Origin: Thermoanaerobaculia bacterium
GTDB taxonomy: Bacteria > Acidobacteriota > Thermoanaerobaculia > Gp7-AA8
NCBI GenBank assembly: GCA_036009605.1
Contig: DASYLL010000251.1
Span: forward strand, 1-59,364
Direction of reading: 5' to 3'
Length of the DNA stretch: 59,364 nucleotides
In this document: piece by piece, positions 26,784 through 53,118 of the stretch
Layout of the letters: every line of letters starts with the position of its first letter
How positions within the stretch are numbered: the stretch's first letter is position 1
Translations under genes and position numbers: made by a program
Notes under the pieces: model-generated
Seen by the model: only the letters and a program-made list of their open reading frames with translations
Database searches by the model: none
What the model was told of the DNA's origin: nothing

Positions 26784-26860
26784 GCTGTGGTGTAGCTCAG
26801 TTGGTAGAGCGCCGGATTGTTAATCCGGTGGTCGTAGGTTCGAGCCCTACCGCCACAGCC
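26784..26860 (+). tRNA. tRNA-Asn (anticodon GTT)
   Basis: Acceptor stem gctgtgg/ccacagc, D-arm tagctcagttggtagagc, anticodon stem-loop ccgga-ttGTTaa-tccgg, T-arm gtaggttcgagccctac. No CCA is encoded. Confidence 0.9.
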
Positions 26861-27032
26861 AATTCGAAACAACTCCGTAGAAAGCATTTAGCAGCACCCC
26901 CTCTTCTCACCGATTTTGGCGTTTCGGCCCAAGTGTCTAATCGCGCGTCTAATCGGCGCCGTGACGACGTCGTTTCGCTCCATTTCGAACGAGACGATCT
27001 GCGGGAAGGGGTCCTTGCATTCACTCCGATGC

Positions 27033-27254: not shown

Positions 27255-28465
27255 GACACGGTCAACGCGGTGACCGGCTTGTGGGCTTCGCCTACGACGA
27301 AGCGGCCGGCATCGCCCACTTCTCGATGTATGTGCCCGGCACAGCCGGCCGTGTCCGGAAACGCGCAACGGTGCGTGCCGTCTCGTATGAGCAGGCGGTA
27401 GGGCTCTGGTCCGCGTTCCGGAGCCGAGCCGCCCAAGGACTTCACCGCCCCTCGCCCGAAGCCCCGACGTTCTTGGAGTTCATCACCGACTACTTCCCAT
27501 CGATCGAGGCGAACGTCACGAGGAAGACCGCGACCGACTACCGCTACGGCATCCATCGGCACCTGCTGCCGCAACTCGGAGCGCTGCGCCTCACTGAGAT
27601 CACCTCGGGCGTCGTGAACCGCCTCGGCGCATCGATGAAAGCCCAAGGCTACGCCGGCGCGACGGTCAACAAGCACATGACTCTTGCGGCCCTTCTCCTC
27701 GGCTACGCCGTTGAGTTCGACGTGATCGCTGAATTGCCGCTCAAGAAAAAGCTCAAGAAGCAGAAGGTGAACAAGCCGTGTCTCGAGCTCAACGCGGAAG
27801 AGCGGGCGGCGTTCCTCGCAGCGTTCAACGACGAGCCAGGCTTCCGTCGCTATCTCGCCGAAACCATGCCCAAGGGGAAACCCCGGCAGACGAAGGATGG
27901 GCGCTTCGGATCGCGACGAGCCCACGGGGCCGGGATGCGCGACGACAGCGACGCGGCGCACGCGTACTTCCTCCGCTTCCAGACTTCGAGGGATCTCTTC
28001 GTCACGGCTCTTGAAACGGGCATCCGCTCGGGAGACCTCCGGGCGCTCACGCGCCATCACATCGACTTCGAGGAGGGCTGGATACGTTTCAGTCAACAGA
28101 AGACGAGCAAGGAGGTCGTTATACCCATCTCGCATGAGTGTCGCCTCGCTCTTCAGAGTGCGCTTTCGTCTCGTGAAGTCTGTGCTGACGATCCGGTCTT
28201 TGTCACCGAAACGGGCCTCCCGTATGGACAATCAACGATGCGGCGCTACTTCAAAATCGCCAAGCGTCTTGCCGGACTCATCAGGAAGTGCAGATTCCAC
28301 GATCTTCGTCACACCTTCGGGTGCGACCTGGCCACTGCTGGTCTGCCGTTGCGATTCATCGGGAAGGTCATGGGCCACACGAATGCGACGACCACCGAGC
28401 GATACGCCCGGCCAGATCAGATTGTGCTGGAGCGGGTGCGCGAGGCACTCAACCGCGAGCGGTAG
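27251..28465 (+). CDS. tyrosine-type site-specific integrase
   Basis: C-terminal catalytic region ETGIRSGDLRAL..HDLRHTFGCDLATAG..VMGHTNATTTERYARP (R..HxxR..Y). The 612-aa ORF from 26627 reads through the tRNA and was trimmed. Confidence 0.9.
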   Translation: MRHGQRGDRLVGFAYDEAAGIAHFSMYVPGTAGRVRKRATVRAVSYEQAVGLWSAFRSRAAQGLHRPSPEAPTFLEFITDYFPSIEANVTRKTATDYRYGIHRHLLPQLGALRLTEITSGVVNRLGASMKAQGYAGATVNKHMTLAALLLGYAVEFDVIAELPLKKKLKKQKVNKPCLELNAEERAAFLAAFNDEPGFRRYLAETMPKGKPRQTKDGRFGSRRAHGAGMRDDSDAAHAYFLRFQTSRDLFVTALETGIRSGDLRALTRHHIDFEEGWIRFSQQKTSKEVVIPISHECRLALQSALSSREVCADDPVFVTETGLPYGQSTMRRYFKIAKRLAGLIRKCRFHDLRHTFGCDLATAGLPLRFIGKVMGHTNATTTERYARPDQIVLERVREALNRER

Positions 28466-28525: not shown

Positions 28526-29131
28526 TTACCTCTTGCGGTGCAGATTTCTGATAATGACGAACCACCCCGTGGCCTCCATTGTGTCGAATCGGAGATCCAT
28601 TGTGTTGGAGCGCCCGCCCTTATCCTCTCGCCAGATGCGTCCCGGCACAGCGTCCTTGTCCTTCCTCCAGGTCAAGCGATAGAGCGTGCCTGCCTTCATC
28701 GCCGCGAGCGCCCGCAGTTCATCGAACGTCAGCTCGTCCTTCGCCGGTCGCCATCTTCCGCGCTCGATACGCCCGGCGATTACGATCGCCTCGAGCTCAT
28801 CTTTCAGAAAATAGGGGCGCGGTTCCGGTCCGAATCTAGTCGGGTACGTCGGCGGGTCGAAGTACGGCCTTCCTCGTTCCGAGCCTTCGGTCTCGCGGAG
28901 GATGCCGCGCCGGCGTCGTTTTCGAAGTCGCTTCGAACCGGGCAACTCATCAGCAAGCCGATCGCTTTCCACGAGCCACTCCCGGAGCCGTGGCAACCCG
29001 TCCGTGATGCGATAGGCTTCCATCCGAAGATCCGCGCCGGCTCGTCGGTTCTTGCGATCAAGGTCGGCCAGTGCCTCCATTGCCTTCTCCTCGGCTCGTG
29101 AAAAACGCGCTTCTCCTTTGCCGCCGCTCAC
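28526..29131 (-). CDS. hypothetical protein (201 aa, basic)
   Basis: ORF overlapped by 4 nt with the upstream small ORF. No motif recognised. Confidence 0.45.
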   Translation of the reverse strand: MSGGKGEARFSRAEEKAMEALADLDRKNRRAGADLRMEAYRITDGLPRLREWLVESDRLADELPGSKRLRKRRRRGILRETEGSERGRPYFDPPTYPTRFGPEPRPYFLKDELEAIVIAGRIERGRWRPAKDELTFDELRALAAMKAGTLYRLTWRKDKDAVPGRIWREDKGGRSNTMDLRFDTMEATGWFVIIRNLHRKR

Positions 29132-29687: not shown

Positions 29688-31853
29688 TTGGCGATGGACT
29701 CCAAAGAACTCGCAGCAGCGCTGAGACTTCAGCTGAAGCTCGATCCGCCGGTCACGGGAGGAGTGCCTAAGCTTCTCTTGGATCTGTTCATCCGATTTAC
29801 CGCCGCATGGCTCGCCCAGGAAGATCCACCGCTCAAGGAGCTTCCGCTCCGATCGCACAAAAGCCTTCGTGCCGCCATCGCAGAACACGAGAGTAAGGGC
29901 CGGCTACGCCCGAATCGGCGTTCGAAGAAAAGCAATCCAACCGACAATCAAGGCAGCGAAACAGCGAGGCAAGAGATCGCACGACAACGCGCTGAGCAGA
30001 TCAGCGAGACGCTCACCGCGGCTTTGACAAGCCTCTCTCAGCGTTTGCGCAGGCATCCGTCCGCTCAGCCGAAAGGCGATGACACCGTGTTTCTTGCCTT
30101 CGAAGTCGCCCTCGGGCAGGAGCGCTTCACCGTTGAACTAACCGGGCTACTTCCGAAAAACAGAGCGGGTCTTGGATTCCCCGAGGACGAAAGAGTGGGA
30201 TTTCTCGGTCGGCTGGTGAAGCTACACGCACCGCCAACCTCAAGTCGGTCTCGTGACGGGAGCGCTCGCTCCGAAGACGCGTCGCCGCAGCGAGATCCCA
30301 CCACGAAGAATGTCGAGCCTGTCTCGACCGTTCCGCTCGTTCGGAAGAAATTCACGCGATCCGCAATCTTGCGAGGCATGGTTTGGATCGCCGTCGTTGT
30401 CGCGGGCTGGCTGGTCGCTCGGCCGGACATCTCTACCGCCCCGCCCCTCAGCCTACCTCCAATTACCACCCACCTTCAGAGCTTCTCCGACGTGCGGTTT
30501 TCCTATGCCACTGAGCAATCAACCGCGATCAGCCCTGTTTGCGGATGTCAGAACGAGCTCGATGCGCGCTTGTGGCGCGGCATCTCTTACTTCGGCCGCC
30601 GGGCGGTGATCGAGCGTCTGTCAGGAAGCGCAGCGACCAAGTTCCTCATCACTGCCGCGTCCCCGGTACGCATTCGCTCAACTCCGTATGCCTACAACAT
30701 CGAAGGGGTGGTTTACCACTTGACAGTACCGTTCGGCGAGGCCTTCGACTCCTCAACATTGCTCAACGACGCAGTACCGAAATCTTACCGGGTTCAAGCA
30801 CGCGAGACATTTCAAGGTCCACAGATCATTTTGACTGCCGTGGGTCCGGTCCGAATCGACGCATATGGCCCGGTACCATTTGGCGCTTGGTTACCAGTCG
30901 AGGGCTCTGAGGTCTCCGCGTCGACCAGTCGCGGAATGGCGTTGACAAGCCGAACCAATGTCGTAATTACCGAACGCTACAAGCGATGGCACGCCGGCAG
31001 CGGCCACTATCCGATCGCTGATTTCGTCGGCGCTGACACCGTGATCTGGACTGAGCCGACACGCCACGTAGCTAGTTCGCCCCAACGCCGAGATATCGTG
31101 GCAGTTCGCGTCACGAATCCAGGCTTCGCAACGCGCCTCGCGATTACGCCTCACGCTGCCACCGACGATGACGGCAACGTAACGTTGCATCCACCGCCGA
31201 CGGGGGGCGTTGCCGCCGTAGATCGCGATGGACTCCTTCGGTTCACAATCGAGGATGTCGACGAGAACCTTAGCGAATTCGGCGAAGTAATTGATCGACT
31301 CAAACAGAACGATCTCGTCTGGATCCCCCGAATCCGTCAGCTAGCGGGTTCACTCTTTTATCAAGACAAGAGCGGTATGTTTCATTTGGCAGATCCTGAT
31401 CCGCCATTCCCACCGCGCCGCATGAGACTTGAGGAAGATGTGGACGCCACAGTCAAATTCCGCTATCCGCCTGTGCCACCCCGGAATGGCATCAACATAT
31501 TTGGTCAGTTACGATCACTGGTGTTTAGTAATGCCATCGGTTCGATTGCGCGCGGTACGCGCGAATACTCATTTGTGGTGCCGGCATCATTCTCTTTTCA
31601 CGACATCGCACAGTTTGCGGCCGCGGGTGGCGTGATCACGCTGCCGTTGGTCTCGGATGGCTCCTCGACCACGATTCGACTGGACGGCAGCGCGACCGTG
31701 GAGGTAAACGGGCAGCCACTTTTCGTGGAACGGCACCGATGGGCATCGCTACGTCAGATCGCTACAGGTGTTGCGCTGTGTGCATTTGCGACGTTACTTG
31801 TCTCAGGAGAAGTAATGCTTGGCGCTCTACGTCGACGCCGCAAGGATCGATAG
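29688..31853 (+). CDS. ORFan 721-aa protein with a central TM helix and a C-terminal TM helix
   Basis: Charged N-terminal ~235 aa, TM AILRGMVWIAVVVAGWLVA, ~440-aa middle domain, then terminal TM IATGVALCAFATLLVSGEVMLGAL followed by RRRRKDR. Confidence 0.6.
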   Translation: MAMDSKELAAALRLQLKLDPPVTGGVPKLLLDLFIRFTAAWLAQEDPPLKELPLRSHKSLRAAIAEHESKGRLRPNRRSKKSNPTDNQGSETARQEIARQRAEQISETLTAALTSLSQRLRRHPSAQPKGDDTVFLAFEVALGQERFTVELTGLLPKNRAGLGFPEDERVGFLGRLVKLHAPPTSSRSRDGSARSEDASPQRDPTTKNVEPVSTVPLVRKKFTRSAILRGMVWIAVVVAGWLVARPDISTAPPLSLPPITTHLQSFSDVRFSYATEQSTAISPVCGCQNELDARLWRGISYFGRRAVIERLSGSAATKFLITAASPVRIRSTPYAYNIEGVVYHLTVPFGEAFDSSTLLNDAVPKSYRVQARETFQGPQIILTAVGPVRIDAYGPVPFGAWLPVEGSEVSASTSRGMALTSRTNVVITERYKRWHAGSGHYPIADFVGADTVIWTEPTRHVASSPQRRDIVAVRVTNPGFATRLAITPHAATDDDGNVTLHPPPTGGVAAVDRDGLLRFTIEDVDENLSEFGEVIDRLKQNDLVWIPRIRQLAGSLFYQDKSGMFHLADPDPPFPPRRMRLEEDVDATVKFRYPPVPPRNGINIFGQLRSLVFSNAIGSIARGTREYSFVVPASFSFHDIAQFAAAGGVITLPLVSDGSSTTIRLDGSATVEVNGQPLFVERHRWASLRQIATGVALCAFATLLVSGEVMLGALRRRRKDR

Positions 31854-31946: not shown

Positions 31947-33260
31947 CTAGTCGTGCTCGCCCTTCATGAACTGAAAGACCAGCTCGAAAGTGCCGACGTT
32001 GTTTTGGGTCGCTTTGCCGCGCACCTTGCCGCCGTACACAGCGCGAAGCCCGGAATACATCTCGATCTTTTTGAGCCAGATATTGCAGATGTTGTAGCTC
32101 AAGGCCCCGTAGATGGCCTCCTCGCAGGAATACCAATCCCTCGCTGATAGCTGCGGGTCGTTCGGACCGGAAGAAGAGCTCTCCGGGTTGTGGTCGCCGC
32201 CGCTCAGATGGCCAAGCTCATGCAGGGCCTCGACGATGTCACCATCATCCCAGGAAGCGAAAATCTTGCCCGCAATCGCGACCTCGATCCGTGGAATCAG
32301 AGGGGCCGGGGAAGTGATGAGCGCGAGTGGGCTGTATGAGTTCTGGAAGAGGACCAGGGTACCAGCCGCCTTACTTAGCGCGCGGGCCTTGTTGATCGGG
32401 CCTTCCGCATCTACCGCCCAGTCGAAGATGTCGGCTTGGGCAAGTCCTGCGGGCCTCTCGAAGAAAAAGATCTCGCGGATGGCCATTCGGCCGTTGAAAC
32501 CGCTTGAGCGATAGGCGGTGTTCTGCCTGTCCATCAGGTGGATGACGCGCTTCGTGACCTTGTCAGCACCGCCTACTGCGTCGCGGTACTCAGTGCTGAT
32601 CGCGATGTTGATCCAAACTGTTGGGGGCAACGAGCCAGAACGGACAGCCCTTCGCTTTCCGTTAGGTTTCACGGCTGTAGCGACGAGGTCCTGCATCGGA
32701 GTTACGAGGTTGGGGTAATACACCACTTCAGGAGCCTCGACATACAGGCTCGAGGTTACGAGGTGCTCATCCACTTCGGTGGAGACGAAATAGCACTTCC
32801 GACCGGCTTGGATGTGCCCAAGTACGTCGCCGTCGTAGAACTTGGTGAAGACCGAAAAAATGTCTTCGCCTTCTACTCGGTAGGTGAACACCTCAGAAGT
32901 GTCCCGACGCTCCGACGCGACCAACTGCGCAGGGAAATCATGTCCCTCGGCGCTCAGAATGACGACGGAGAATCCGAGAATCTCTGAGTCGAGTTTGACG
33001 CGCTCCATGCTGAGGATCCGCTCGGAGACTGGGGTTCCTTTGCCCATGGCTTGCGGCAAAGGGGTAAAGAGACGTCGCGGGGCTGACCCGGCATGCAAAG
33101 AGTCTCGAAAAGTCCTGCCCGGCTGCGCCGTCGTGGAGGTTGCAAACACGAGAAGGAGAGCGAGGCCAAGCGGGCCACTGGACACCTTCAGTACGCGCGT
33201 TAGAGTGAAAGTACTTACCAGTTCACGAATATGGGTAAAAGCGTCAAGATCGCATCTCAT
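31947..33260 (-). CDS. secreted metzincin-type zinc metalloprotease (reprolysin-like)
   Basis: HELGHLSGGDH equals HExxHxxGxxH. Signal-like SSGPLGLALLLVFATSTTAQP. The start is uncertain (ATG 33260 or GTG 33185); the ORF extension to 33452 overlaps the recombinase gene. Confidence 0.7.
   Translation of the reverse strand: MRCDLDAFTHIRELVSTFTLTRVLKVSSGPLGLALLLVFATSTTAQPGRTFRDSLHAGSAPRRLFTPLPQAMGKGTPVSERILSMERVKLDSEILGFSVVILSAEGHDFPAQLVASERRDTSEVFTYRVEGEDIFSVFTKFYDGDVLGHIQAGRKCYFVSTEVDEHLVTSSLYVEAPEVVYYPNLVTPMQDLVATAVKPNGKRRAVRSGSLPPTVWINIAISTEYRDAVGGADKVTKRVIHLMDRQNTAYRSSGFNGRMAIREIFFFERPAGLAQADIFDWAVDAEGPINKARALSKAAGTLVLFQNSYSPLALITSPAPLIPRIEVAIAGKIFASWDDGDIVEALHELGHLSGGDHNPESSSSGPNDPQLSARDWYSCEEAIYGALSYNICNIWLKKIEMYSGLRAVYGGKVRGKATQNNVGTFELVFQFMKGEHD
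33230..33247. repeat. left copy of an 18-bp perfect inverted repeat
   Basis: tatgggtaaaagcgtcaa is the exact reverse complement of 33878-33895. It overlaps the recombinase ORF's first ATG. Confidence 0.9.
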
Positions 33261-33881
33261 AAACGGAAAAGACACGCAATGCATGTCGTCGTGGATCAAG
33301 CCGCGCATCAACTCGCCTACCTCACGAAAGTGGAAGTGGAACGTCTTTTCACCGCCATCCCACGTTTGGACGGACGCGACAGGCTTCTTTTTGACGTCAT
33401 CTACCGTTACGGTCTGCGTCGGCAGGAAGCGGCGCTTCTCCGCCGCGAGCACGTCGCAGAACGGATATGGATCACACGCCTAAAAGGCGGTGTTTCAGGT
33501 GAATATCCGATCCACCCGACCACTCGGCGACTCCTCTGGGACTATTTCGAGCAGCAGGAAGGCAGGCCGGGGCCGTATCTTTTTGCGACTCGGCAGAGCG
33601 GCTTGCGGCCGATGTCCCCCTCGACGATCTATCAGATCTTCCGTCGCTACGCGGACGCCGCTGATCTGCCGGCCGACCGGAGGCATCCGCATGTCCTGCG
33701 GCACTCCATAGCCGTGCACCTCATGAACGCGGGATGGGACGCTGCCGACGTCCAGGACTGGCTGGGACACCGTGACATCGCCTCGACGATGGTCTACGCC
33801 GCGGTCACGAACAAACGCCGGGAGGCAAAGTATGAAGAGGCACTTCTCTCCGATGAGATTGCTGCAAATAACGCGAGTTGA
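33231..33881 (+). CDS. small tyrosine recombinase (XerC/D-like, catalytic domain only)
   Basis: YGLRRQEAALLRREHV..HPHVLRHSIAVHLMNAG..WLGHRDIASTMVYAAV (R..HxxR..H..Y). The start may be ATG 33279. Confidence 0.85.
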   Translation: MGKSVKIASHKRKRHAMHVVVDQAAHQLAYLTKVEVERLFTAIPRLDGRDRLLFDVIYRYGLRRQEAALLRREHVAERIWITRLKGGVSGEYPIHPTTRRLLWDYFEQQEGRPGPYLFATRQSGLRPMSPSTIYQIFRRYADAADLPADRRHPHVLRHSIAVHLMNAGWDAADVQDWLGHRDIASTMVYAAVTNKRREAKYEEALLSDEIAANNAS

Positions 33882-33895
33882 CGCTTTTACCCATA
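33878..33895. repeat. right copy of the 18-bp perfect inverted repeat (inside the local hairpin 33873-33908)
   Basis: ttgacgcttttacccata overlaps the recombinase stop codon. It is embedded in gcgagttgacg-(14 nt)-cgtcaactcgc. Confidence 0.9.
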
Positions 33896-34662
33896 AACGT
33901 CAACTCGCATTTTGCTCTGTCCAAGTGAACGAAGCTAACCGACTTCCAGTTACCTCGGCGGTGGTCGAAAACCTCCTTCTCGCGGGTTGGAGTACCAAGG
34001 TAGCCGGAGCCGTGACGCAGGCGAGCGGTCGCGAGGAAGGTTCTCCGATCGGCGCCGAATCAAGCATCCGCGGCTACAGATAACGATTTGCACTGCCGCA
34101 GAATCTAGTTGCGACCGCGTTCGTCTAGACGCAGCGATTTCGCGGAGCAGAGCGCACTCGTTGATCTTGCCGAACTGGGGAGTGAGGTAGTCCGTTTTAG
34201 GCGAGATACAACCTTGCGACCTCGTGCGATGAAGAAGCTTGTTTCAACCGGATCAAGACATCTGGCAACGTCCGTAGCTTCAGAAGTGTTTCGATTTTGA
34301 ACACTGATCAGTTTTCGCCTGAATTCGATAGGTCTTGACGGCGTTCTCATCAGTGCTAAACTGAAGTGTAGAAGGAGGTTAGCGCCCTCCTTGAAAATTT
34401 GATGAGTTCGCACGCGTTTTGCGTCGGAAAAATCTGCTAGCGACCTACGCTCGATCTGTGTACAGTGCCTGACTTAATTCGAAATGGCGACATTGATCAA
34501 CAGTGGACTGCAAGCGAGGTCCGCTTTGTTGTTAACTCACGTCCAAGTGCGGCTGAAAAGGCGCGCAAAATGCAATTACTGTCTGAATGGAGCTTGTATG
34601 AAAGACCTTGGCTTTGTAGGCATGCGTCTCGGCAATCAGTTGTCTGACGGAGGCAGAGCTAA

Positions 34663-34863
34663 GTGAGCGACGAAGGTCGCCGTGGTCCCGGAGCGCTGGA
34701 CCCCCCGATTCTATCGTCCTGGGGTTCGATTTTTCCACCGATTCCCTCGCGACGAGTCGACTATTCCTCAACGCCGCCACCGCGCAGAGACGAAGTTCAA
34801 CTTGCTTCGTTACTCGACGACGAGGCAGCTGCTGATCTCGACGATCTAATACCTCTTCCGTAG
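34663..34863 (+). CDS. possible small protein with an acidic C-terminal tail
   Basis: GGAGG 9 nt before GTG 34663. Ends 24 nt before a strong terminator. C-terminus ..LLDDEAAADLDDLIPLP. The composition is otherwise unconvincing. Confidence 0.3.
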   Translation: MSDEGRRGPGALDPPILSSWGSIFPPIPSRRVDYSSTPPPRRDEVQLASLLDDEAAADLDDLIPLP

Positions 34864-34886
34864 AAACATTAGGCTATTTGACTCCT

Positions 34887-34924
34887 TGACCCGACCTTCC
34901 GTAGTTGAAGGCCGGGTCATTTTT
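34887..34924 (+). terminator. strong rho-independent terminator
   Basis: tgacccgaccttc-cgtagtt-gaaggccgggtca (13-bp stem, 1 mismatch) followed by ttttt. Confidence 0.75.
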
Positions 34925-34942
34925 GTATATTTAGAACCTTTA

Positions 34943-37423
34943 ATGTTGCCACCAATGAGATTTCTCAATGAAGGCGTTGCATATGCGCACCTCGCCCTTC
35001 AATCTGACAATGCTGCGGCCGAGGCCGCAGCACTTTCCATAGCTTTAGAAAAGCTGAATATCCCGAAGGAGAAGTACAGAATCACATTCTTAACCGGCCA
35101 AGCCGATCTGCTGCTGGAGGTCCGTCTCGGAGACCTTCGGGTCGCGTTCGAGCTCGAGTACGCCACATCGGCTACTGCGGTCAACTGGCTATTCGCCGTG
35201 CCCGTGGCGACGGCACCTATTGTTGGTGTGAACGGGGGCGAGTTCGCGCTCACCTACGTTATCCACCTGCGAGTACATCGAGACATATACCGCTCGGTCG
35301 GGGGCCTCGCGGATCAAGAGATTCTCAAGGCCATCCTTGCGGCGCCACAGGGGCGCATTGACTGCGAGGTGCTGGCAGGGTTCGGGTGGTCGGATCTACT
35401 TCTTCGAGGCCGGTTTGCATCGATAGAAGATTTCGCAAGCTTCGTTTCGTACCTCAGAAACCTGCGACTTCCCAGTGCAGGTGACCGCTACGTCTTTCGT
35501 CGCATGCTGACTTTGATCGGGTATGACTCCAGCTTCGATCTAGCTGCGAGCTCCGACATGGTCTTGCATCCTGTCATCTTTGCGCGCTGTCTGCCCACGC
35601 ACCTTCAACAAGCGGCCGATTTTCTGAAATACAATGATGGGCAATGGCGCACTTTGTTTGTCGACGGAAAATGGGACGTGCTCTCGTTGCTAGAGGCACC
35701 GAAGGGCGTATCGGCACCTGTCTTCATTCGCGAGCATTTCGAGAAGGCCATCAGTGGTGGCAACATGCGGCTCGCCGGTGTTGAGCGCCTGGAAACTCAC
35801 TTAATCACGTTCTCGAACGCCTCGGAGCCGCCAACAGACAAGGATGAACCACGTTCGTGTTCGTGCGCTTCTGCCGTGCGTTCTGGTCGGGAGCTGTTGG
35901 GCGATCCGGAAGATCCGAGAAGTTCCGCACGAGCGCTGCCCCAGGCGCTAGTCGTCGCGGTTCGAAACGTGTTGAATCTCCTCAAAACCACCTCACGCGA
36001 AACCACAAACTGTTGCGATATCGTCCCGAGTCTGGTTCGCTGCGAAATCGGTCTCGATCGCCTACTCGCTCATCATCGGGAGCTTCGACGCAGATTGGCT
36101 GCTGCGTGCGAATCCGACCTAGTTTCGCTCCCAGAACGAGCACGTTTGAACGAGAGGGTAGTCAAGGCAAGGAGCGACATCGAGGAATGGTGCACCTACG
36201 CGGAACGGATCGTCAGCCAACGCACCGCGGGCCGATTCGACGAGTTTCTTACGCAAAACGAGCGCGTGGTTTCCTATCGCGGCGGCGTCCAGCAGCTGCT
36301 TTACCTCACCGATGCTCTGTTAAACGGCTTCGCGCAGCGCGTGCTTCCAAGCAATGAAACCGCGTTTATGTCGTTGTTCGATCCCGTCGATATCGTCTTG
36401 GGGCACCACATCGTTGGGTTCGTTCGGGTCCCGGTTAGATACCTGTTTACGTTGCCCTTGGCGATCGCGCACCTCTGGCACGAAGTCGGCGTACACCGTT
36501 TCTACACACAATACCGCCACCCTTTTGATGAACGAACGCGAAGCCGCCTCTCGGATTTCCGTGATGCCACTGGCGAGCGCGAAGACGTTTTGGCAGAGGC
36601 AGTTCTTTACGATCTGGCGGATACCTATGGCGATGCAGTGACCTTCGCGAAGGGCTTCGGCGGCAACTATGGCGCATTTGCAATCTCTTTAAGCAGTACG
36701 CTTTTCGAGACTGACGCGTTTAGGGCCGCGCCACCGAGTGTACAGGACGAGTATCTGGTAGCCCTGCTGTCACGACTGTACATGGTTGCCGAGTTTCAGC
36801 AGCGATATTTATTTGTGCGTCGCAAAATGCAAAAAAGCGCACTTTCCATCGACCGGGCAGAGATTGACAACTGGATTCCCGATCCAAAACGGTTTGTTTG
36901 GCCACGGCTTCAGCGAATCGTGGAACTTCTGCGCGGCCGGTTGCTCGATCAGGCTCGCTACAGAGCGCGGGAGATTCAACTTCGAGATTCGATCGTTGAC
37001 ACTGCCTGGCGCGAAATCGGATCGCCAGCGAGGGTACTGCAGCGACAATATCTGAAAGACCTAGCGTGGCAGGAAGATGCGGCGTATGCGGCGCCGCCAT
37101 CGGCGTGCGCTCAAGAGTTGTTCGAACACATTAACGCGGGAACGGTTGTCGTTATCCCCGAAGACGTGGACATCAACGATCTCTTTCTGCTACTTCAGCA
37201 AAAAATGGTTACTGAACTCGCCAACACACCCGACAATGCGACCTCTCCGGTGGACTCGGCCGGCTTTTTCTTGCCGGTCGCCGCATTAGTACGCAGTAGT
37301 GTTCTTGCCTACTATCAACGCGAGATGACGCCCCGACCGAGAGGTGAAGGTATTGCTAACGTGTGGCGAGGCCGCCTCGCGGCGAGGCCAAAACAAAGCC
37401 AAGACATATTCGGCAGGAAATGA
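34943..37423 (+). CDS. ORFan ~826-aa protein (N-terminal Lrp/AsnC-ligand-domain-like repeats are a tentative reading)
   Basis: Long uninterrupted ORF. The TTG 34886 start lies inside the terminator, so ATG 34943 or 34955 is preferred. No catalytic or NTPase motif recognised. Confidence 0.65.
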   Translation: MLPPMRFLNEGVAYAHLALQSDNAAAEAAALSIALEKLNIPKEKYRITFLTGQADLLLEVRLGDLRVAFELEYATSATAVNWLFAVPVATAPIVGVNGGEFALTYVIHLRVHRDIYRSVGGLADQEILKAILAAPQGRIDCEVLAGFGWSDLLLRGRFASIEDFASFVSYLRNLRLPSAGDRYVFRRMLTLIGYDSSFDLAASSDMVLHPVIFARCLPTHLQQAADFLKYNDGQWRTLFVDGKWDVLSLLEAPKGVSAPVFIREHFEKAISGGNMRLAGVERLETHLITFSNASEPPTDKDEPRSCSCASAVRSGRELLGDPEDPRSSARALPQALVVAVRNVLNLLKTTSRETTNCCDIVPSLVRCEIGLDRLLAHHRELRRRLAAACESDLVSLPERARLNERVVKARSDIEEWCTYAERIVSQRTAGRFDEFLTQNERVVSYRGGVQQLLYLTDALLNGFAQRVLPSNETAFMSLFDPVDIVLGHHIVGFVRVPVRYLFTLPLAIAHLWHEVGVHRFYTQYRHPFDERTRSRLSDFRDATGEREDVLAEAVLYDLADTYGDAVTFAKGFGGNYGAFAISLSSTLFETDAFRAAPPSVQDEYLVALLSRLYMVAEFQQRYLFVRRKMQKSALSIDRAEIDNWIPDPKRFVWPRLQRIVELLRGRLLDQARYRAREIQLRDSIVDTAWREIGSPARVLQRQYLKDLAWQEDAAYAAPPSACAQELFEHINAGTVVVIPEDVDINDLFLLLQQKMVTELANTPDNATSPVDSAGFFLPVAALVRSSVLAYYQREMTPRPRGEGIANVWRGRLAARPKQSQDIFGRK

Positions 37424-37429
37424 GAGACG

Positions 37430-37864
37430 ATGCCTAAAGTTCTGCTCGACACTTGGACATTTCAGCAATACTTGGAGGATGAGTCTCAACTCAGTGAAGA
37501 TGCGCAAAGTATCATACGAGCCGCAGTAGCGGCCAATGATCACCTTTATGTGTCCGCAATTTCGTATCTTGAGGCGCGTCTGACGGCACGAGCCAGCGGT
37601 CTATCCCGCCACGACCTTGACTCGCTGGACGAGAGTCTGGAACGTTCGAGAATACAGATATTGCCCGTGACCCAGTGGGTAGTTGTATCTATTGATATGA
37701 TTCCTGATTCAGCGACGCTGGCAGATCGAATCGCCGCCGCGCAAGCCCTATCGGGCAACTATACTCTGCTGACAGGTGTTGAGGACATAATCTGTACGGA
37801 GTTAGATTGCGTTCGAAGTAACCCTGCGCACATGGGCACCACGGAGGTCATCGGAAGTGCCTAG
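37430..37864 (+). CDS. PIN-domain ribonuclease (VapC-like toxin)
   Basis: VLLDTW.., LYVSAISYLEA, LADRIAAAQAL and LLTGVED match the four acidic PIN positions and the VapC pattern. Starts 6 nt after the upstream stop. Confidence 0.8.
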   Translation: MPKVLLDTWTFQQYLEDESQLSEDAQSIIRAAVAANDHLYVSAISYLEARLTARASGLSRHDLDSLDESLERSRIQILPVTQWVVVSIDMIPDSATLADRIAAAQALSGNYTLLTGVEDIICTELDCVRSNPAHMGTTEVIGSA

Positions 37865-37888: not shown

Positions 37889-40800
37889 TCAATGAGACGT
37901 GTTCGCAGGCGCCGCGTCCCGTAGGCTTTTCCCAGCCATAAAGCCCTCAAGGAAGACGCCAAAAAAGAGCCCGAAGGCAGTCCATGTGAGTATCAGTGTA
38001 GGATAAAAACGGAACGCTAAATAGGGGGCTAGATTGCTCGAGACGGTGTTCCCCGTAGTTAATCCCCAAATGTGGCCCAGATCCAACGTGGTCTCTCGGG
38101 GTAGAACCCTCAAGAAATACGGATAGCGATGCTGATGCAGTGGATGCGGACCCGCCTCGGCTTCATACGCGACCTTGGCGTGGTTTGCGCCGTGAGGCAT
38201 AGGATGCGTCGCCAGCGGAGTGTCATGAAGAGCGTGACTCGTTCCGAATATTGCGGACATGAGTATCGCGATTCCGAATGCATGAGATAGCGCTAGCGCA
38301 ACGACCCGTCGTGCTGCAGCCGCCTTCTCCCGTGTGTTCAGGGCATCGCTACCGGATTTTTCTGCGCGCTTTGCAACTTCGCGGGACACAAAGAAGCCGG
38401 TCGACAAGTATGACAACCCGATAAGAAGAAGAAGCGCTAGTGACGTTCCGGTCAGAGCAAAGTCGTAGCTATGATCAACCTCAACGATGAGAGCCATTGG
38501 GACCGCAGTAAGTCGCGCGAGGCGAGGCAGTAGGCATTCGAACCAATACCCCTTCTCAGGCGACAGGCGTTCTCTGCTCGCGGACTTGCGCATACCACGA
38601 ACGAACGTAACGACCGCCCCAATGATAACGGCCGCGGACAGTGCGAAGAAGCCTGCGCCCTCGAGCCAATGGAAGTTGAGGAGATCCATGGCGACTGCCC
38701 AGGCGTATGCTAGAAGCAACACCAACAGCGGCAGCCACGGATTGGTCGCGAACCTGTAGAACGTGCGAAATGATGGCGGCCACCGCTCACTCAATACGGT
38801 GTTGAGCCCTTTAATGTCTAGGCTTGCTGCCCGCCATCTAACAAAGAAATCCTGAAATAGTAGATCCTGGTGGTCGAACGCGGGCGGTCGCGGGCCCAAG
38901 ATTGCCCCGATATTGTCCAGCTCCGCCGCCCTGTAAGCCCCGGAGTTGCGTGCTGCGGGCGAGGCACCGTCTTTGATTAGAATGCTGCTGCCGGGTAATG
39001 GGCCGCGTGGTGGGGGTGGTGACAGGCAGAGTGACTCCCAGAACAGCGTTGTCGCGTTCTGACCGGCGGCGGTCGCTCCTCGAGGCTGGTGTGGCAGCTC
39101 GCCTTCCGCCTGCTGAATTAGCAAGACCGGCCATTCACAATACCAACGGATTGAATCGCGGAAGAGCATCGCGAGATGCGTCATCAGAGTAACGAATAGT
39201 GTCTGCTCGGAGTGGTGGAGGCCCCTGTGAGCCTGTAGCGATTTGGCCACCGCGAGAGCAGTCCGGGTGCAGCCGCGGAGTGCTGTCGATCGCGCGGTGA
39301 AGCTCTCTATGGGCGTCGCGAGATAGTTTTTGACCTGCTGCTGCAAGTCCTGCAAGTTGTGGCCATAGCTGTCCGCGAGCGTGGTGCGGGATGCATTGTC
39401 CAAGCCGTGCGAGATTAGATCGTGCTGATTGAAGAAGGTCGACAGACCACCATGCGCCAAGCATTTCCATGAGTCGGGCGAGCGGGACGTGAGTTCACGA
39501 TAAGTGCTAAGCGCCTCTAGCATAAGAGAGAGAGTCGGAGTGCTGTGCGACGAAAGCTCCTTCGGTAGTTGATCGATGTGGACTTTGATTGTGTCCGTGG
39601 TCGCGTTAGCGTCGCGCAGCGCAGCGGCGTGGTCGCGGAAGAAGAGCACAATTGCGTGATCGGTGGAGTTGCTGACTCGTGGAAGAAGGTGATCGAAGAT
39701 AGTTTCGCTTCCTCCATGGAACACAACTTCATAGAGGGGTTTGGCGATGTCAGATCTGGCCCGGCGCTTCGAACGCCTAATGATGAGATCGAACTCTCGC
39801 GCAATCGCGCGCGCGATCCGCGCACTCACCGTGGGCGTAATCATTGAGGCGACGTGTGGCGGAAGACGTTCGGGGCTGATCGGCTCTGTCGTATCGCTTC
39901 GCCCAACGATTTCCGCGAAACGGTGCAATTCGAGATCAGCGGCCTCCGCCGCACCAGAGGGAAGGGTGGCAAGGATGTGCGATGCAATCCGCCGCGCGTC
40001 TGAGCTCGCAAGCGAGATACCGGGTACCTGAAAGAGGTGTTCCCGAGTGAGTGCCGGAATGTCCCGCGAGACCGTGTGTAGCTGTGTTGCAAGTATTCGT
40101 ATCAGTGTGGTCTGATCGAGAGACGATTGCTCGCGCCAAGCGGCGAGCATTGACTGCGTTCGTTTCAGGATATCGGTCTCGAACGCGACGCCGCCGATCA
40201 GCCGGTCGGCGAGCTGCGAGCTGAGTCGCGACGTCTGTTCCCGCGCGATGCAATCATGGCAGAAGATGTTTCGAAGTACTTGGGGATTGGGGTTGCTGAG
40301 TATCTCGGCGATTTGTTGCTCGGTCAAGTATACCCGGCGATGCGATCCACCGGCCAGCAGTTGATCCTCGTGGCTTCTGTTCGCTAGGTGTATGAGCAGT
40401 CGCCGCAGAGAAGCGTTGGCGACCAAACGTTGATGGGTATGACTCAGATCGTTAATGCTTGGGGGACATGTGATCTGTTGAAACAGAATATCGAGCGCGG
40501 AGCGGGTCAAGCGGTCGTGCGCTGGGCTGACAATGAGCTCGCTAAGGCCGATGTAACAAGCTTCGGGGATGCCAGTGTTGGACCACGGCGAACTATACTC
40601 ACGCAACGAGTTGAATAGGGCCGTTACCGCTGCCGTGCTATGCGCCGCGCCGCGCTTGGCGAGGTGGATGGCTGTTCTGATGGTTGCGATCGTAGCGCGG
40701 ATTCTTGCATTGGCCACTCTAGCACCGTCTGCCACAGTGCGGGGTAGCGCCGCGACAGCGCGAGCGACTGATAGATCAAAATCGCTTGCATCCCAGCCAT

Positions 40801-41776
40801 CATGCAGAGCTGCATCGATTGTGCGCAGCACGCTCTCCTGAAAGTTGGCAGCGGCAACGAGAGCTTCGTCGGATTCGCGCTCGATGCGTAGTTGGGACGC
40901 GGCGCAGAGCAATTCAGTAGCTCTACCTTTCAGATCATCGTCTGAACTGTTACGGATGATGGCCGGCAGAAAGCGAAGGAGATCCTGCTGTTCATACAGA
41001 AGCTGAGCAAGATTCGACTCGTGTACCCGAACCATGTTAGAGCTTAGCGCTGCTTGGGCTTCCGCCGTGAGCATGCGATTCAACTGCTCACGCGCATCGG
41101 TGTCGCCGGCGATGACTAACGCAAACATACATCTGCGACGAAGTCGATTTAAGTACTCGTCTCTAATCGCGGTGCGCTCTGCGTACTCGAGCGCAGGATT
41201 TGTGTCTGGTTCACGCTGCAGCGTCGGAGGTAGCGCAAGAGTCCCCGTGTGGTCTTTGCTCGTCCGAAGTAACCGGCCCAGGCCTTCGACGGCGGCCTCC
41301 CTCGTCGCTGGAGCTCCTATTTGCAAGACAGTAGCTAGAGCGTCAAGCAGCCCAGGAAATAAAAGGCTCAGTATATTCTTAGGAAGGCCTGTCTGGGAGC
41401 CAAGTCGCTTGGCGAGATCGCAGTAAAAGCTTTGGTGGAGCGTACCCTCGAGAACGAGAAGTGGTAGAGCGTCAGCGAGCGCCGTTAGCAGGTGAGGCGT
41501 GTTTGCGGCCATTAGCAATGACTCTACAGACGTGGTGAGTATGCGAATCCGATCTTCTGTACGTGCGTTCGCATAGATGGTCGGCAGGTCATTCCGTTCA
41601 GGTGCATGAATCCAATCCCGGGCGCCTTCTATCATGACCATCGTGTCGCCGAAACGCGCCGCGAGGTCGGTTGCGTCGGACTCGGCGCTGAGACCCTGTT
41701 GATAGATGTCCAGCGCCGCCAACGGGTTGTTTTCCCGAAAGGCCTCGCTTACCCGATGCGCCCAGCTCTCTGTCAT
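37889..41776 (-). CDS. ORFan 1295-aa protein: ~950-aa helical cytoplasmic region plus a C-terminal 5-6 TM domain
   Basis: GGAGG RBS before ATG 41776. Hydrophobic segments near the C-terminus include WLPLLVLLLAYAWAVAM, FFALSAAVIIGAVVTFV, LALLLLIGLSYLSTGFFV, VVALALSHAFGIAILMSAIFG and LILTWTAFGLFFGVFLEGF. Confidence 0.7.
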   Translation of the reverse strand: MTESWAHRVSEAFRENNPLAALDIYQQGLSAESDATDLAARFGDTMVMIEGARDWIHAPERNDLPTIYANARTEDRIRILTTSVESLLMAANTPHLLTALADALPLLVLEGTLHQSFYCDLAKRLGSQTGLPKNILSLLFPGLLDALATVLQIGAPATREAAVEGLGRLLRTSKDHTGTLALPPTLQREPDTNPALEYAERTAIRDEYLNRLRRRCMFALVIAGDTDAREQLNRMLTAEAQAALSSNMVRVHESNLAQLLYEQQDLLRFLPAIIRNSSDDDLKGRATELLCAASQLRIERESDEALVAAANFQESVLRTIDAALHDGWDASDFDLSVARAVAALPRTVADGARVANARIRATIATIRTAIHLAKRGAAHSTAAVTALFNSLREYSSPWSNTGIPEACYIGLSELIVSPAHDRLTRSALDILFQQITCPPSINDLSHTHQRLVANASLRRLLIHLANRSHEDQLLAGGSHRRVYLTEQQIAEILSNPNPQVLRNIFCHDCIAREQTSRLSSQLADRLIGGVAFETDILKRTQSMLAAWREQSSLDQTTLIRILATQLHTVSRDIPALTREHLFQVPGISLASSDARRIASHILATLPSGAAEAADLELHRFAEIVGRSDTTEPISPERLPPHVASMITPTVSARIARAIAREFDLIIRRSKRRARSDIAKPLYEVVFHGGSETIFDHLLPRVSNSTDHAIVLFFRDHAAALRDANATTDTIKVHIDQLPKELSSHSTPTLSLMLEALSTYRELTSRSPDSWKCLAHGGLSTFFNQHDLISHGLDNASRTTLADSYGHNLQDLQQQVKNYLATPIESFTARSTALRGCTRTALAVAKSLQAHRGLHHSEQTLFVTLMTHLAMLFRDSIRWYCEWPVLLIQQAEGELPHQPRGATAAGQNATTLFWESLCLSPPPPRGPLPGSSILIKDGASPAARNSGAYRAAELDNIGAILGPRPPAFDHQDLLFQDFFVRWRAASLDIKGLNTVLSERWPPSFRTFYRFATNPWLPLLVLLLAYAWAVAMDLLNFHWLEGAGFFALSAAVIIGAVVTFVRGMRKSASRERLSPEKGYWFECLLPRLARLTAVPMALIVEVDHSYDFALTGTSLALLLLIGLSYLSTGFFVSREVAKRAEKSGSDALNTREKAAAARRVVALALSHAFGIAILMSAIFGTSHALHDTPLATHPMPHGANHAKVAYEAEAGPHPLHQHRYPYFLRVLPRETTLDLGHIWGLTTGNTVSSNLAPYLAFRFYPTLILTWTAFGLFFGVFLEGFMAGKSLRDAAPANTSH

Positions 41777-48046: not shown

Positions 48047-48147
48047 TCGGGTGTTTCTCCTTTTTGTGTTAGTTGGGAAGGATCCGCACCCAGGTTACCC
48101 GGGCAAAGAAAGCCTTGCGAGACGGCATTTGTACAGTGCGCCTGTAC

Positions 48148-48636
48148 TTACCCCGGCACGACGCCGAACGCGTGAAGGACGAGGGAAGCGGCATCGAAGA
48201 TCTCTGTCCTCGCCTCTTCGCTCCGAAAGACCTTGCGCTTACGCGGAACCAGCGGCTCGATCTCCGGAAACATCGCACCGATGCTCTCAGCGACCGCGTG
48301 CTTTCTGGTCAACCCGCGCTCAGCCCACTCGCGACGGACGGCAAATCGGCTGACCGCGACGACACGGACGCCCTGATGTCTCGCTGTTTGAGCCAAGAGA
48401 CCGAGGAGTTGCCGAACGCGGGGTCGCCGCTCCGCACGCGGCACCTCCGGGTCTTCCAGAACCAGGACATCGGCCTTGTAGCGCTCAAGCAGGCGCTGAA
48501 GTAAGGCGCATTCGTCGCCATCGCCCCGCCGGGTGCCCCAGTCCAGCAACATACCGTTTTCGAAGAAGACGAAGGCAAGCCCTCGCGGATTGGGGTCGAT
48601 CGCGATGATGGAACGATCGTCAGCGAGTTTCGTCAT
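48148..48636 (-). CDS. RuvC/RNase H-fold-like hypothetical protein
   Basis: IIAIDPNPRGLAFVFF.., ..VLVLEDPE.. and ..DAASLVLHAF are spaced like the RuvC acidic residues (D..E..D). This is an inference. Confidence 0.45.
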   Translation of the reverse strand: MTKLADDRSIIAIDPNPRGLAFVFFENGMLLDWGTRRGDGDECALLQRLLERYKADVLVLEDPEVPRAERRPRVRQLLGLLAQTARHQGVRVVAVSRFAVRREWAERGLTRKHAVAESIGAMFPEIEPLVPRKRKVFRSEEARTEIFDAASLVLHAFGVVPG

Positions 48637-48953: not shown

Positions 48954-49231
48954 GGAATACAGGGTAGGGCGGGCTTGCGCCGCTGCCGAGACGGCATAAG
49001 TACAGCGGTATCGCACTTTTTTGAGGTGCGGGGTACTCCGCCGCGTGGCCGGTGGCCAAGCAGCAAAGCGAGCGCATTAGCGCAGATACACGTCGACACA
49101 ACCGAGCGGCTGTGTCAAAGGGCACTATTGTCGCACGGCAACGTTAAAGAAAGTTTAAGAAATGCTCAAGAGAATATAAGGAGTGCGTGAGTGCGTCGCC
49201 ACCAAGTGTCGCCTCGTTTTGCAACCACCTT

Positions 49232-52807: not shown

Positions 52808-53118
52808 CCCACTACAGTAGACGCCGGTGCATCGCGCTACGAGACGGCATAAGTACAGCACCTTCGGATTTTTGCCGTCTCCCAGAGGCAGCAAGCGACC
52901 GGTACTATGATCCGATGAGTGAGAATAGTCTCCATACCGCTTTTCGCGCGACAGTCGACGAACGGCTTCGCCAGTATGCGAGCGTAGTTGTGGCGATTGT
53001 GTCGCGACAGGACAACATGGCGCTGCCCGACATGGCTTTGACAGCTCCCGAATCGCGAGCTACGGTATCTCCGGGGTCGGAGTCGAGCCCCGGCACCTCA
53101 AAAACTCAATACGAATAA

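Follow-up and report, generated by a model that had tools for sequence, protein, structure and literature searches.

A tyrosine recombinase gene between inverted copies of its own putative site: a probable self-contained invertible cassette on a genomic island of a Thermoanaerobaculia bacterium

We analyzed a small tyrosine recombinase gene and the inverted repeats at its two ends in a stretch of 59,364 nt from a Thermoanaerobaculia bacterium of the phylum Acidobacteriota (assembly GCA_036009605.1, contig DASYLL010000251.1, positions 1 to 59,364; this whole stretch is called the window below). The segment 33220-33908 is probably a self-contained invertible cassette, in which an Xer-like recombinase that comprises the catalytic domain only lies between inverted copies of its own recombination site, the left site L and the right site R, and would act as a stochastic toggle. 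Four observations carry this interpretation: the anatomy of the locus, the conservation of that anatomy across the recombinase family, the co-variation of the central cores of L and R, and a natural inversion in a homologous cassette.

The ends of the cassette are marked by a perfect 18-bp inverted repeat. The sequence TATGGGTAAAAGCGTCAA, on the forward strand at the left end, recurs as its exact reverse complement at the right end, and the repeat lengthens to 28 nt at 89% identity (33220-33247 and 33878-33905). The left copy spans the first ATG (33231) and the right copy spans the stop codon TGA (33879-33881) of a 216-aa open reading frame (ORF). In addition, the right copy is the centre of a hairpin with an 11-bp stem at 33873-33908 (GCGAGTTGACG at 33873-33883 and CGTCAACTCGC at 33898-33908), which as RNA is predicted to fold at -22.8 kcal/mol (z = -5.3) and is followed by ATTTTG in a terminator-like arrangement. 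The original prediction, made from the sequence of the window, had described these repeats with their positions, the overlap with the start and stop codons, and the hairpin, all of which were correct on recheck. It had also held that the 18-mer pair was not expected by chance, and a search with up to three mismatches agreed with it, finding no third copy across the window where shuffled sequences predict 0.02 matches; thus, we concluded that the inverted repeat is not due to chance. A shufflon or other multi-site system was considered and rejected, since further copies of the site were sought in the window and just the two are present.

Hundreds of close homologues of the recombinase (200-217 aa, 50-86% identity) were found in public metagenomes and metagenome-assembled genomes (MAGs). 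Their hosts are mostly MAGs of Acidobacteriota, many of them labelled Thermoanaerobaculia or Aminicenantes, with a few Gemmatimonadaceae or Polyangiaceae, and several MAGs carry two or three copies of the family per genome. The same protein was found in only one further contig from other assemblies (L079), which matches the window in the same orientation over the stretch compared. We fetched 159 related loci and compared the two ends of each gene for an inverted repeat. A repeat with a score of at least 10 was observed at the same two positions in 78 of the 95 homologues with at least 46% identity, compared with 1 of 40 more distant recombinases. Across the family, the elements of the site were kept in register: an outer arm (A)GTTSACG, a 4-nt A/T tract, a 6-bp core TGNNNA, the tetranucleotide AAAG, and an inner arm CGTSAA. 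In this form, each site looks like a pair of inverted ~12-bp half-sites that flank a 6-bp centre, the canonical architecture of core sites for tyrosine recombinases. At the right end, the site is mostly a near-perfect palindrome (e.g., TTGACGCTTTT-GCCC-AAAAACGTCAA), which accounts for the hairpin seen in the window, where site R is a near-perfect palindrome of the usual 12-6-12 form. At the left site, the outer arm deviates (TTCACG followed by an A tract), and it is this A tract that creates the ATG. The 4-nt tract that separates the outer arm from the core is AAAA-like or TTTT-like (loci L009-L041 and L099-L145), and all four left/right combinations were observed among close relatives, including those of the second clade; inversion as the cause of this variation was rejected, because neither the distal arms nor the conserved left flanks swap. 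Short Logan contigs were checked for assembly breaks at the sites, and none break there.

The cores were diverse between loci and matched within them. We observed 22 core forms (TGGGTA, TGGGCA, TGCGGA, TGTGGA, TGCGAG, CGAGGG, and others), and the L and R cores were identical in 61 of the 62 distinct site pairs from loci chosen for a detectable inverted repeat, compared with a mean of 6 and a maximum of 14 when the pairing was shuffled. In particular, identity at the variable positions 12 and 14 was 37% from locus to locus and 100% inside loci, as would be expected of a crossover region in which the two partner sites have to match. Co-variation of L and R would also be predicted if the 5' and 3' copies paired in the mRNA and occluded the start codon, with the right hairpin as an intrinsic terminator and no recombination of DNA; the position of the repeat over the first ATG and the stop codon, and the stable R hairpin followed by AUUUUG, would fit such an RNA-only element. 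However, pairing in RNA leaves unexplained the arm-core-arm palindromes, whose arms are conserved in sequence beyond pairing, the constant company of an intact recombinase, and an inversion with its junctions in the core (see below), and we regarded this explanation as highly improbable.

The inversion was found by an all-against-all comparison of the flanks across the loci for orientation swaps. One clear swap was observed, in an Aminicenantes-type sister clade whose recombinase is ~52% identical to that of the window, between the loci L121 and L124, which are independent metagenome contigs from two samples; both orientations were assembled from samples Ga0315275 and Ga0315281. Their 704-bp units showed 95.5% identity on the same strand, and the right flank of L121 is the reverse complement of the left flank of L124 (427 nt, 95.8%); on the left of L121, 38 nt match the reverse complement of the right side of L124. 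As the junctions in table 1 show, the outer arms were kept by the flanks and the inner arms travelled with the gene, with the exchange inside the 6-bp core TGCGTA. The sites of these loci share only 6-9 bp, too little to allow a de Bruijn mis-join or RecA-dependent recombination. The locus on a closed chromosome of an Aminicenantes MAG (L027) and locus L131 are in the L124 orientation, and a further candidate swap (L096 vs. L023) was distant and ambiguous. We concluded that inversion occurs in nature for a homologous cassette at ~52% identity. The copy in the window is presumably active too, given that the gene is intact and that L and R match perfectly over 18 bp. In the flipped L121, a predicted promoter with 10 of 12 consensus matches, TTGACG-18-TAAAAT, stands ahead of the recombinase gene; in L124, the same -35 element faces TAGATT and is predicted to be antisense to the gene.

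Table 1. Coordinates of the cassette and its surroundings in the window, and junction sequences of the two inverted loci
Feature	Position	Strand	Remark
Tyrosine recombinase gene	33231-33881	+	216 aa from ATG 33231; public gene caller: ATG 33279, 200 aa
Left 18-bp repeat copy	33230-33247	+	
Right 18-bp repeat copy	33878-33895		
Site L	33220-33249		Arms and core by family comparison
Site L, outer arm AGTTCACG	33220-33227		
Site L, tract AATA	33228-33231		
Site L, putative crossover core TGGGTA	33232-33237		By homology to the L121/L124 inversion junctions
Site L, inner arm AAAG-CGTCAAGA	33238-33249		
Hexamer CAAGAT inside site L	33245-33250	+	Candidate -10, putative
Site R, near-palindrome	33873-33908		
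Site R, inner arm GCGAGTTGACG-CTTT	33873-33887		
Site R, core TACCCA	33888-33893		
Site R, tract TAAA	33894-33897		
Site R, outer arm CGTCAACTCGC	33898-33908		
External sigma-70-like promoter TGGACA-16-TAGAGT	33179-33206	+	Predicted; just outside site L, into recombinase gene
Divergent secreted metzincin-like gene	31947-33185	-	412 aa from GTG 33185; gene caller start 33047
tRNA-Asn	26786-26861	+	Left end of genomic island
394-aa tyrosine integrase	27281-28465	+	Left end of genomic island
L124 left junction			AATTGGCGAGAA-TGCGTA-AAATAGACAACT
L124 right junction			GAGTTAGCGAATC-TACGCA-AAAACGCTAACTC
L121 left junction			GAGTTAGCGTTTT-TGCGTA-AAATAGACAACT
L121 right junction			GAGTTAACGAATC-TACGCA-TTCCCGACAACTC

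Two further features of the Aminicenantes-type clade were observed. Its flanks are mosaic near site L, with breakpoints within ~35 nt of a site (e.g., L125 1-430 compared with L128 and L027, and L121 1-436 compared with L124 1670-2009); L125 combines the left flank of one lineage with the unit and right flank of another, which may reflect recombination between different copies. In addition, five or six loci (among L131, L132, L130, L117, L025, and L128) carry TTTACA-16-TATAAT (TGTAAT in L130) on the minus strand of the right flank, just outside the right site. This strong promoter-like motif points into the 3' end of the gene, so that in the assembled orientation the gene is antisense to its nearest strong promoter.

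We then asked to which recombinases the protein is related. The only Pfam match of the 216-aa ORF was PF00589 (108.7 bits against a cut-off of 27.1, residues 30-195), and the recombinase is a catalytic domain only, with ~29 residues ahead of the domain and without the N-terminal core-binding domain; correspondingly, matches to Xer models begin at model position 92-112. In an alignment of 25 family sequences, R63, K85, H154-x-x-R157, and Y189 were invariant and H180 was nearly so, and the R, H-x-x-R, H, and Y positions align with their counterparts in XerA/XerD. The closest models and structures were the archaeal XerA model and PDB 4a8e, followed by XerC and XerD, in each case in the catalytic domain. 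The NCBIfam Xer equivalogs all scored below their cut-offs (XerA, 107.5 vs. 220; XerC, 90.7 vs. 335; XerD, 85 vs. 330; XerS, 47 vs. 267), as did the FimB/FimE models NF007370 and NF007371 (62.7 vs. 221 and 53.6 vs. 222), with an alignment that spans nearly the whole model, and the integron integrase models (57.1 vs. 265 and 43.4 vs. 435), to which just the C-terminal 70 residues aligned. A serine invertase of the Hin/Gin/Cin type was ruled out, PF00589 being the sole Pfam match. By the tests run, the recombinase is thus placed outside the Fim, Xer, integron, and serine-invertase families. The N-terminus MGKSVK and the C-terminus EIAANNAS, residues that are encoded by the two repeat copies, were unusually conserved in the family alignment. 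Codons 9-16 of the long form showed no codon periodicity, yet never a stop codon or an indel in 22 loci, so that translation may start at either ATG 33231 or ATG 33279.

The kinship with Xer catalytic domains raises a second explanation, in which R would be a dif- or res-like site beside its dedicated Xer-like recombinase, on the model of XerS-difSL and XerH-difH, and would resolve multimers of the excised island (see below), L would be an autoregulatory operator in the 5' leader, and inversion would be unintended. Besides this kinship, the complete palindrome of R directly after the gene, the deviant outer arm of L, the residence of the cassette on integrative or conjugative elements, and the single orientation throughout the window's clade would all be accommodated. 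However, an operator needs no core identity with R, yet the cores differ in only one of the site pairs compared; a homologous cassette did invert by crossover in the core; and a dedicated resolution enzyme is hard to reconcile with scores far below the Xer equivalog cut-offs and with the lack of the N-terminal core-binding domain. On this balance, we considered a resolution site combined with an operator unlikely, and kept the invertible cassette as the preferred interpretation.

The extent of the conserved unit bears on a further alternative. When the window was compared with ~20 related loci, DNA similarity began at 33217-33220 and stopped at 33903-33908, the outer limits of L and R; four of the loci remain similar as far left as 33178, and the right flank of the cassette was not conserved across related loci. 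The original prediction had offered, as an alternative to a switch, that the repeats are the ends of a tiny mobile element, that is, a recombinase-only transposable or integrative unit of ~690 bp, and the sharp stop of homology at the outer repeat ends is in keeping with this, as are the several copies per genome in some MAGs and the varying contexts, including the mosaic flanks near site L in one clade. Nevertheless, a promoter outside the repeats is conserved, and the unit always lies by the 5' end of a divergent gene, which in the window's clade is often an orthologous metzincin-like gene. Moreover, no direct target duplication was visible beside the arms of the window cassette on inspection of the sequence, only one copy is present in the window, and two inverted tyrosine-recombinase sites give inversion rather than excision; no relatives of the recombinase were found among the viral contigs of IMG/VR. 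The mobile element therefore proved the weaker of the two readings offered and is quite unlikely. An insertion sequence or transposon was rejected as well, as there is no flanking direct repeat and as the promoter and the neighbour outside the repeats are conserved.

The conserved promoter is a predicted sigma-70-like promoter just outside site L (table 1). Relatives of the window have CTGGACA or CTTTACA and TAnAGT at a spacing of 16-17 nt, and the next clade has TTTACA-17-CAGACT. Of 99 left flanks, 51 contain a loose form of the motif on this strand and none contains it on the other; among right flanks it was seen in only 5 loci, all of the Aminicenantes-type clade. The left neighbour is always divergent, with its start codon 22-100 nt from the recombinase ATG in most loci, and a signal peptide is usual; about half of the loci have a metzincin-like protein (HExxHxxGxxH) at this place, and the others an unrelated secreted protein. 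These left neighbours evolve fast, being only 20-37% identical to each other, compared with 57-83% for the recombinases. In the window, the GTG start of the metzincin-like gene lies 35 nt from the outer end of site L, and the ORF contains HELGHLSGGDH and a signal-peptide-like N-terminus; its Pfam M12 matches were below threshold, and no sequence relative of the protein was found in the PDB.

For the invertible cassette, we propose the following mechanism. The recombinase would bind four half-sites, each with the consensus GTTGACG followed by a 4-nt A/T tract, and would synapse L with R; strand exchange inside the core TGGGTA would then flip the recombinase gene and leave the outer arms, the external promoter, and the neighbours fixed. 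In the present orientation, the external promoter would read the recombinase gene in sense, and the R palindrome would form a terminator-like hairpin behind it. After a flip, the external promoter would be antisense to the recombinase gene, and the 5' end of the gene would be joined to the outer arm of R, so that TTGACG would stand 17 nt from the candidate -10 hexamer CAAGAT. This TTGACG (the reverse complement of 33898-33903) is nearly invariant in the family and is a 5/6 match to a -35 element. In the present orientation, CAAGAT lies 17 nt from TTCACG (33222-33227). Within the family, A2 and T6 of the candidate hexamer were conserved in 98% and 97%, respectively, the next clade has TAGAGT or CAGAAT, and the hexamer at the matching place inside R is not -10-like. 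The flipped gene would point toward the metzincin gene with no strong hairpin between them, and the hybrid junction expected after inversion is predicted to fold at only -9.3 kcal/mol (z = 0.1). Orientation would hence determine from which promoter the recombinase is expressed, and it may also determine whether the neighbour shares its transcript. Every transcriptional consequence of a flip given here is a prediction from the sequence, and the flip may control the expression of the recombinase itself, that of the neighbouring gene, or both. A more elaborate version, which we put forward as doubtful, is an autonomous flip-flop with built-in directionality: a fixed external promoter would serve one state and a split promoter assembled by inversion the other, so that the rate of switching in each direction could be tuned separately, the flipped state would produce a pulse of recombinase from a transcript shared with the metzincin gene, and islands carrying the cassette would make arbitrary neighbours phase-variable.

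Several points weigh against the invertible cassette as a working switch in the window. No flipped orientation was observed in the window's clade or in the next clade, among all loci with readable flanks; either inversion is rare or strongly biased in these two clades, or the sites now serve another purpose. The choice of loci by a detectable inverted repeat somewhat inflates the co-variation count. With regard to the neighbour, a sigma-70 scan from GTG 33185 to site L gave no promoter for the metzincin gene, and transcription that read through from the flipped gene into the metzincin gene would run head-on into that from the external promoter. Finally, with a translation start at 33231, codon constraints could also account for the conserved -10-like hexamer. 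The inner arm TTGACG was also considered as a -35 element of the metzincin gene and rejected, as no acceptable -10 was found. The invertible switch put forward in the original prediction is thus supported by the conserved sites, the co-varying cores, and the homologous cassette found both ways, with the reservation that all readable loci of the window's own clade are in one orientation. The accompanying suggestion that inversion switches the protease, the recombinase, or both is less well supported as regards the protease: no promoter was found for it, and the only promoter with clear conservation is external to the repeats and directed into the recombinase gene.

The cassette resides on an integrated genomic island, as judged from a tRNA-Asn gene and a tyrosine integrase gene at the left end (table 1) and from a stretch of low GC content, which falls from ~0.62 to 0.52-0.59 between ~29 and 42 kb. 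A repeat of the tRNA-Asn 3' end that would mark the right end of the island (attR) was not found in the window. The order of integrase, 201-aa protein, metzincin, and cassette is the same in three related loci (L002, L003, and L006), two of which (L002 and L006) also have the tRNA, and other cassettes of the family adjoin TrwB-like, relaxase-like, DUF87, or ParB-like genes. From these island and conjugation-gene contexts, it follows that the cassette travels on integrative or conjugative elements.

Other contents of the island and of related loci were also recorded. Four island ORFs, of 721 aa (29688-31853, +), 845 aa (34886-37423, +), 1295 aa (37889-41776, -), and 201 aa (28526-29131, -), matched nothing in Pfam, NCBIfam, or PADLOC; the 201-aa protein, unlike the 721-aa protein, is conserved beside the integrase in related islands. 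PADLOC found no defence-system match among the island genes tested, and Rfam found the tRNA only. A PIN-domain gene (37430-37864, +) begins 7 nt past the stop codon of the 845-aa ORF, with no small antitoxin-like partner evident. To the right of the cassette, ~1 kb (33909-34885) contains no convincing ORF and no Rfam match and has the lowest GC content of the window (0.52); a promoter-like TTGACG-16-TAAACT lies there at 34335-34362. Farther right, a 34-nt direct repeat beginning CGAGACGGCAT occurs in three copies (48118-48151, 48987-49020, and 52840-52873) with 68-100% identity. Relative to the window, L002, and L006, the secreted gene and the cassette of L082 (4001-8635) lie on the other side of the backbone of integrase and 201-aa protein and are reversed, which is a larger rearrangement of the island. 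In a second clade (L013 347-5896, with the same region in L009-L041), the cassette adjoins a conserved block of ~3.5 kb with five unknown genes on the opposite strand; beyond this block, a ParB-like gene was observed in L013, L020, and L041, and a second small recombinase lies ~4 kb away in L009, L010, and L033.

With one gene, two sites, and one outside promoter, the cassette would represent the smallest possible layout of an inversion system, and it offers a clean natural model of a recombinase that controls its own orientation and expression. At ~690 bp, it is also a compact part and a candidate genetic toggle. To our knowledge, programmed inversions are well known in host-associated bacteria and hardly described in soil phyla. 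If the flip also switches the neighbouring secreted proteins, the cassette would provide the first hint that exoproteins are phase-variable in these soil bacteria, which are abundant and for the most part uncultured.

The cassette has the features of an inverton, namely paired inverted sites with a recombinase gene in the segment between them, and it shares individual traits with several known systems. FimB/FimE and fimS of Escherichia coli resemble it in a recombinase of ~200 aa that is a catalytic domain without the N-terminal core-binding domain, in short inverted repeats with flanking half-sites, and in an inversion that changes which gene a promoter faces, as it putatively would in the cassette. 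In the fim system, orientation-dependent expression of fimE biases the switch, which is known as orientational control. Unlike FimB/FimE, the recombinase gene of the cassette lies inside the invertible segment as its only cargo, the sites overlap its start and stop codons, and the protein scores best with Xer-type models (archaeal XerA, XerC, and XerD). The Hin/hix system of the Salmonella H segment likewise places the recombinase gene inside the segment that it inverts, with an adjacent outside gene as the regulated output; Hin, a serine recombinase, depends on an enhancer and on Fis, and the H segment has its own outward promoter, whereas the cassette encodes a tyrosine recombinase and its clear promoter is external to the segment. 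Tyrosine recombinases that flip their own genes are known from Flp/FRT of the yeast 2-micron plasmid and from CreX (PsrA) of the pneumococcal ivr type I restriction-modification locus. The segment flipped by Flp serves to reorient a replication fork for copy-number amplification and that of ivr carries hsdS specificity modules, whereas the segment of the cassette carries nothing besides the recombinase. XerS-difSL, XerH-difH, and archaeal XerA share with the cassette an Xer-like catalytic domain and an arm-core-arm site of ~30 bp that adjoins the recombinase gene; in contrast to XerS-difSL and XerH-difH, the cassette has two inverted sites rather than one, its protein is without the core-binding domain, and it is multi-copy and island-borne rather than located at the replication terminus. 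In the literature searched, we found no description of this recombinase family or of a tyrosine inverton that contains only its recombinase. Taken together, as far as can be read from the loci compared, the cassette is distinctive in that the recombinase is the sole cargo, the sites overlap the ends of the gene, and the clear promoter is external.

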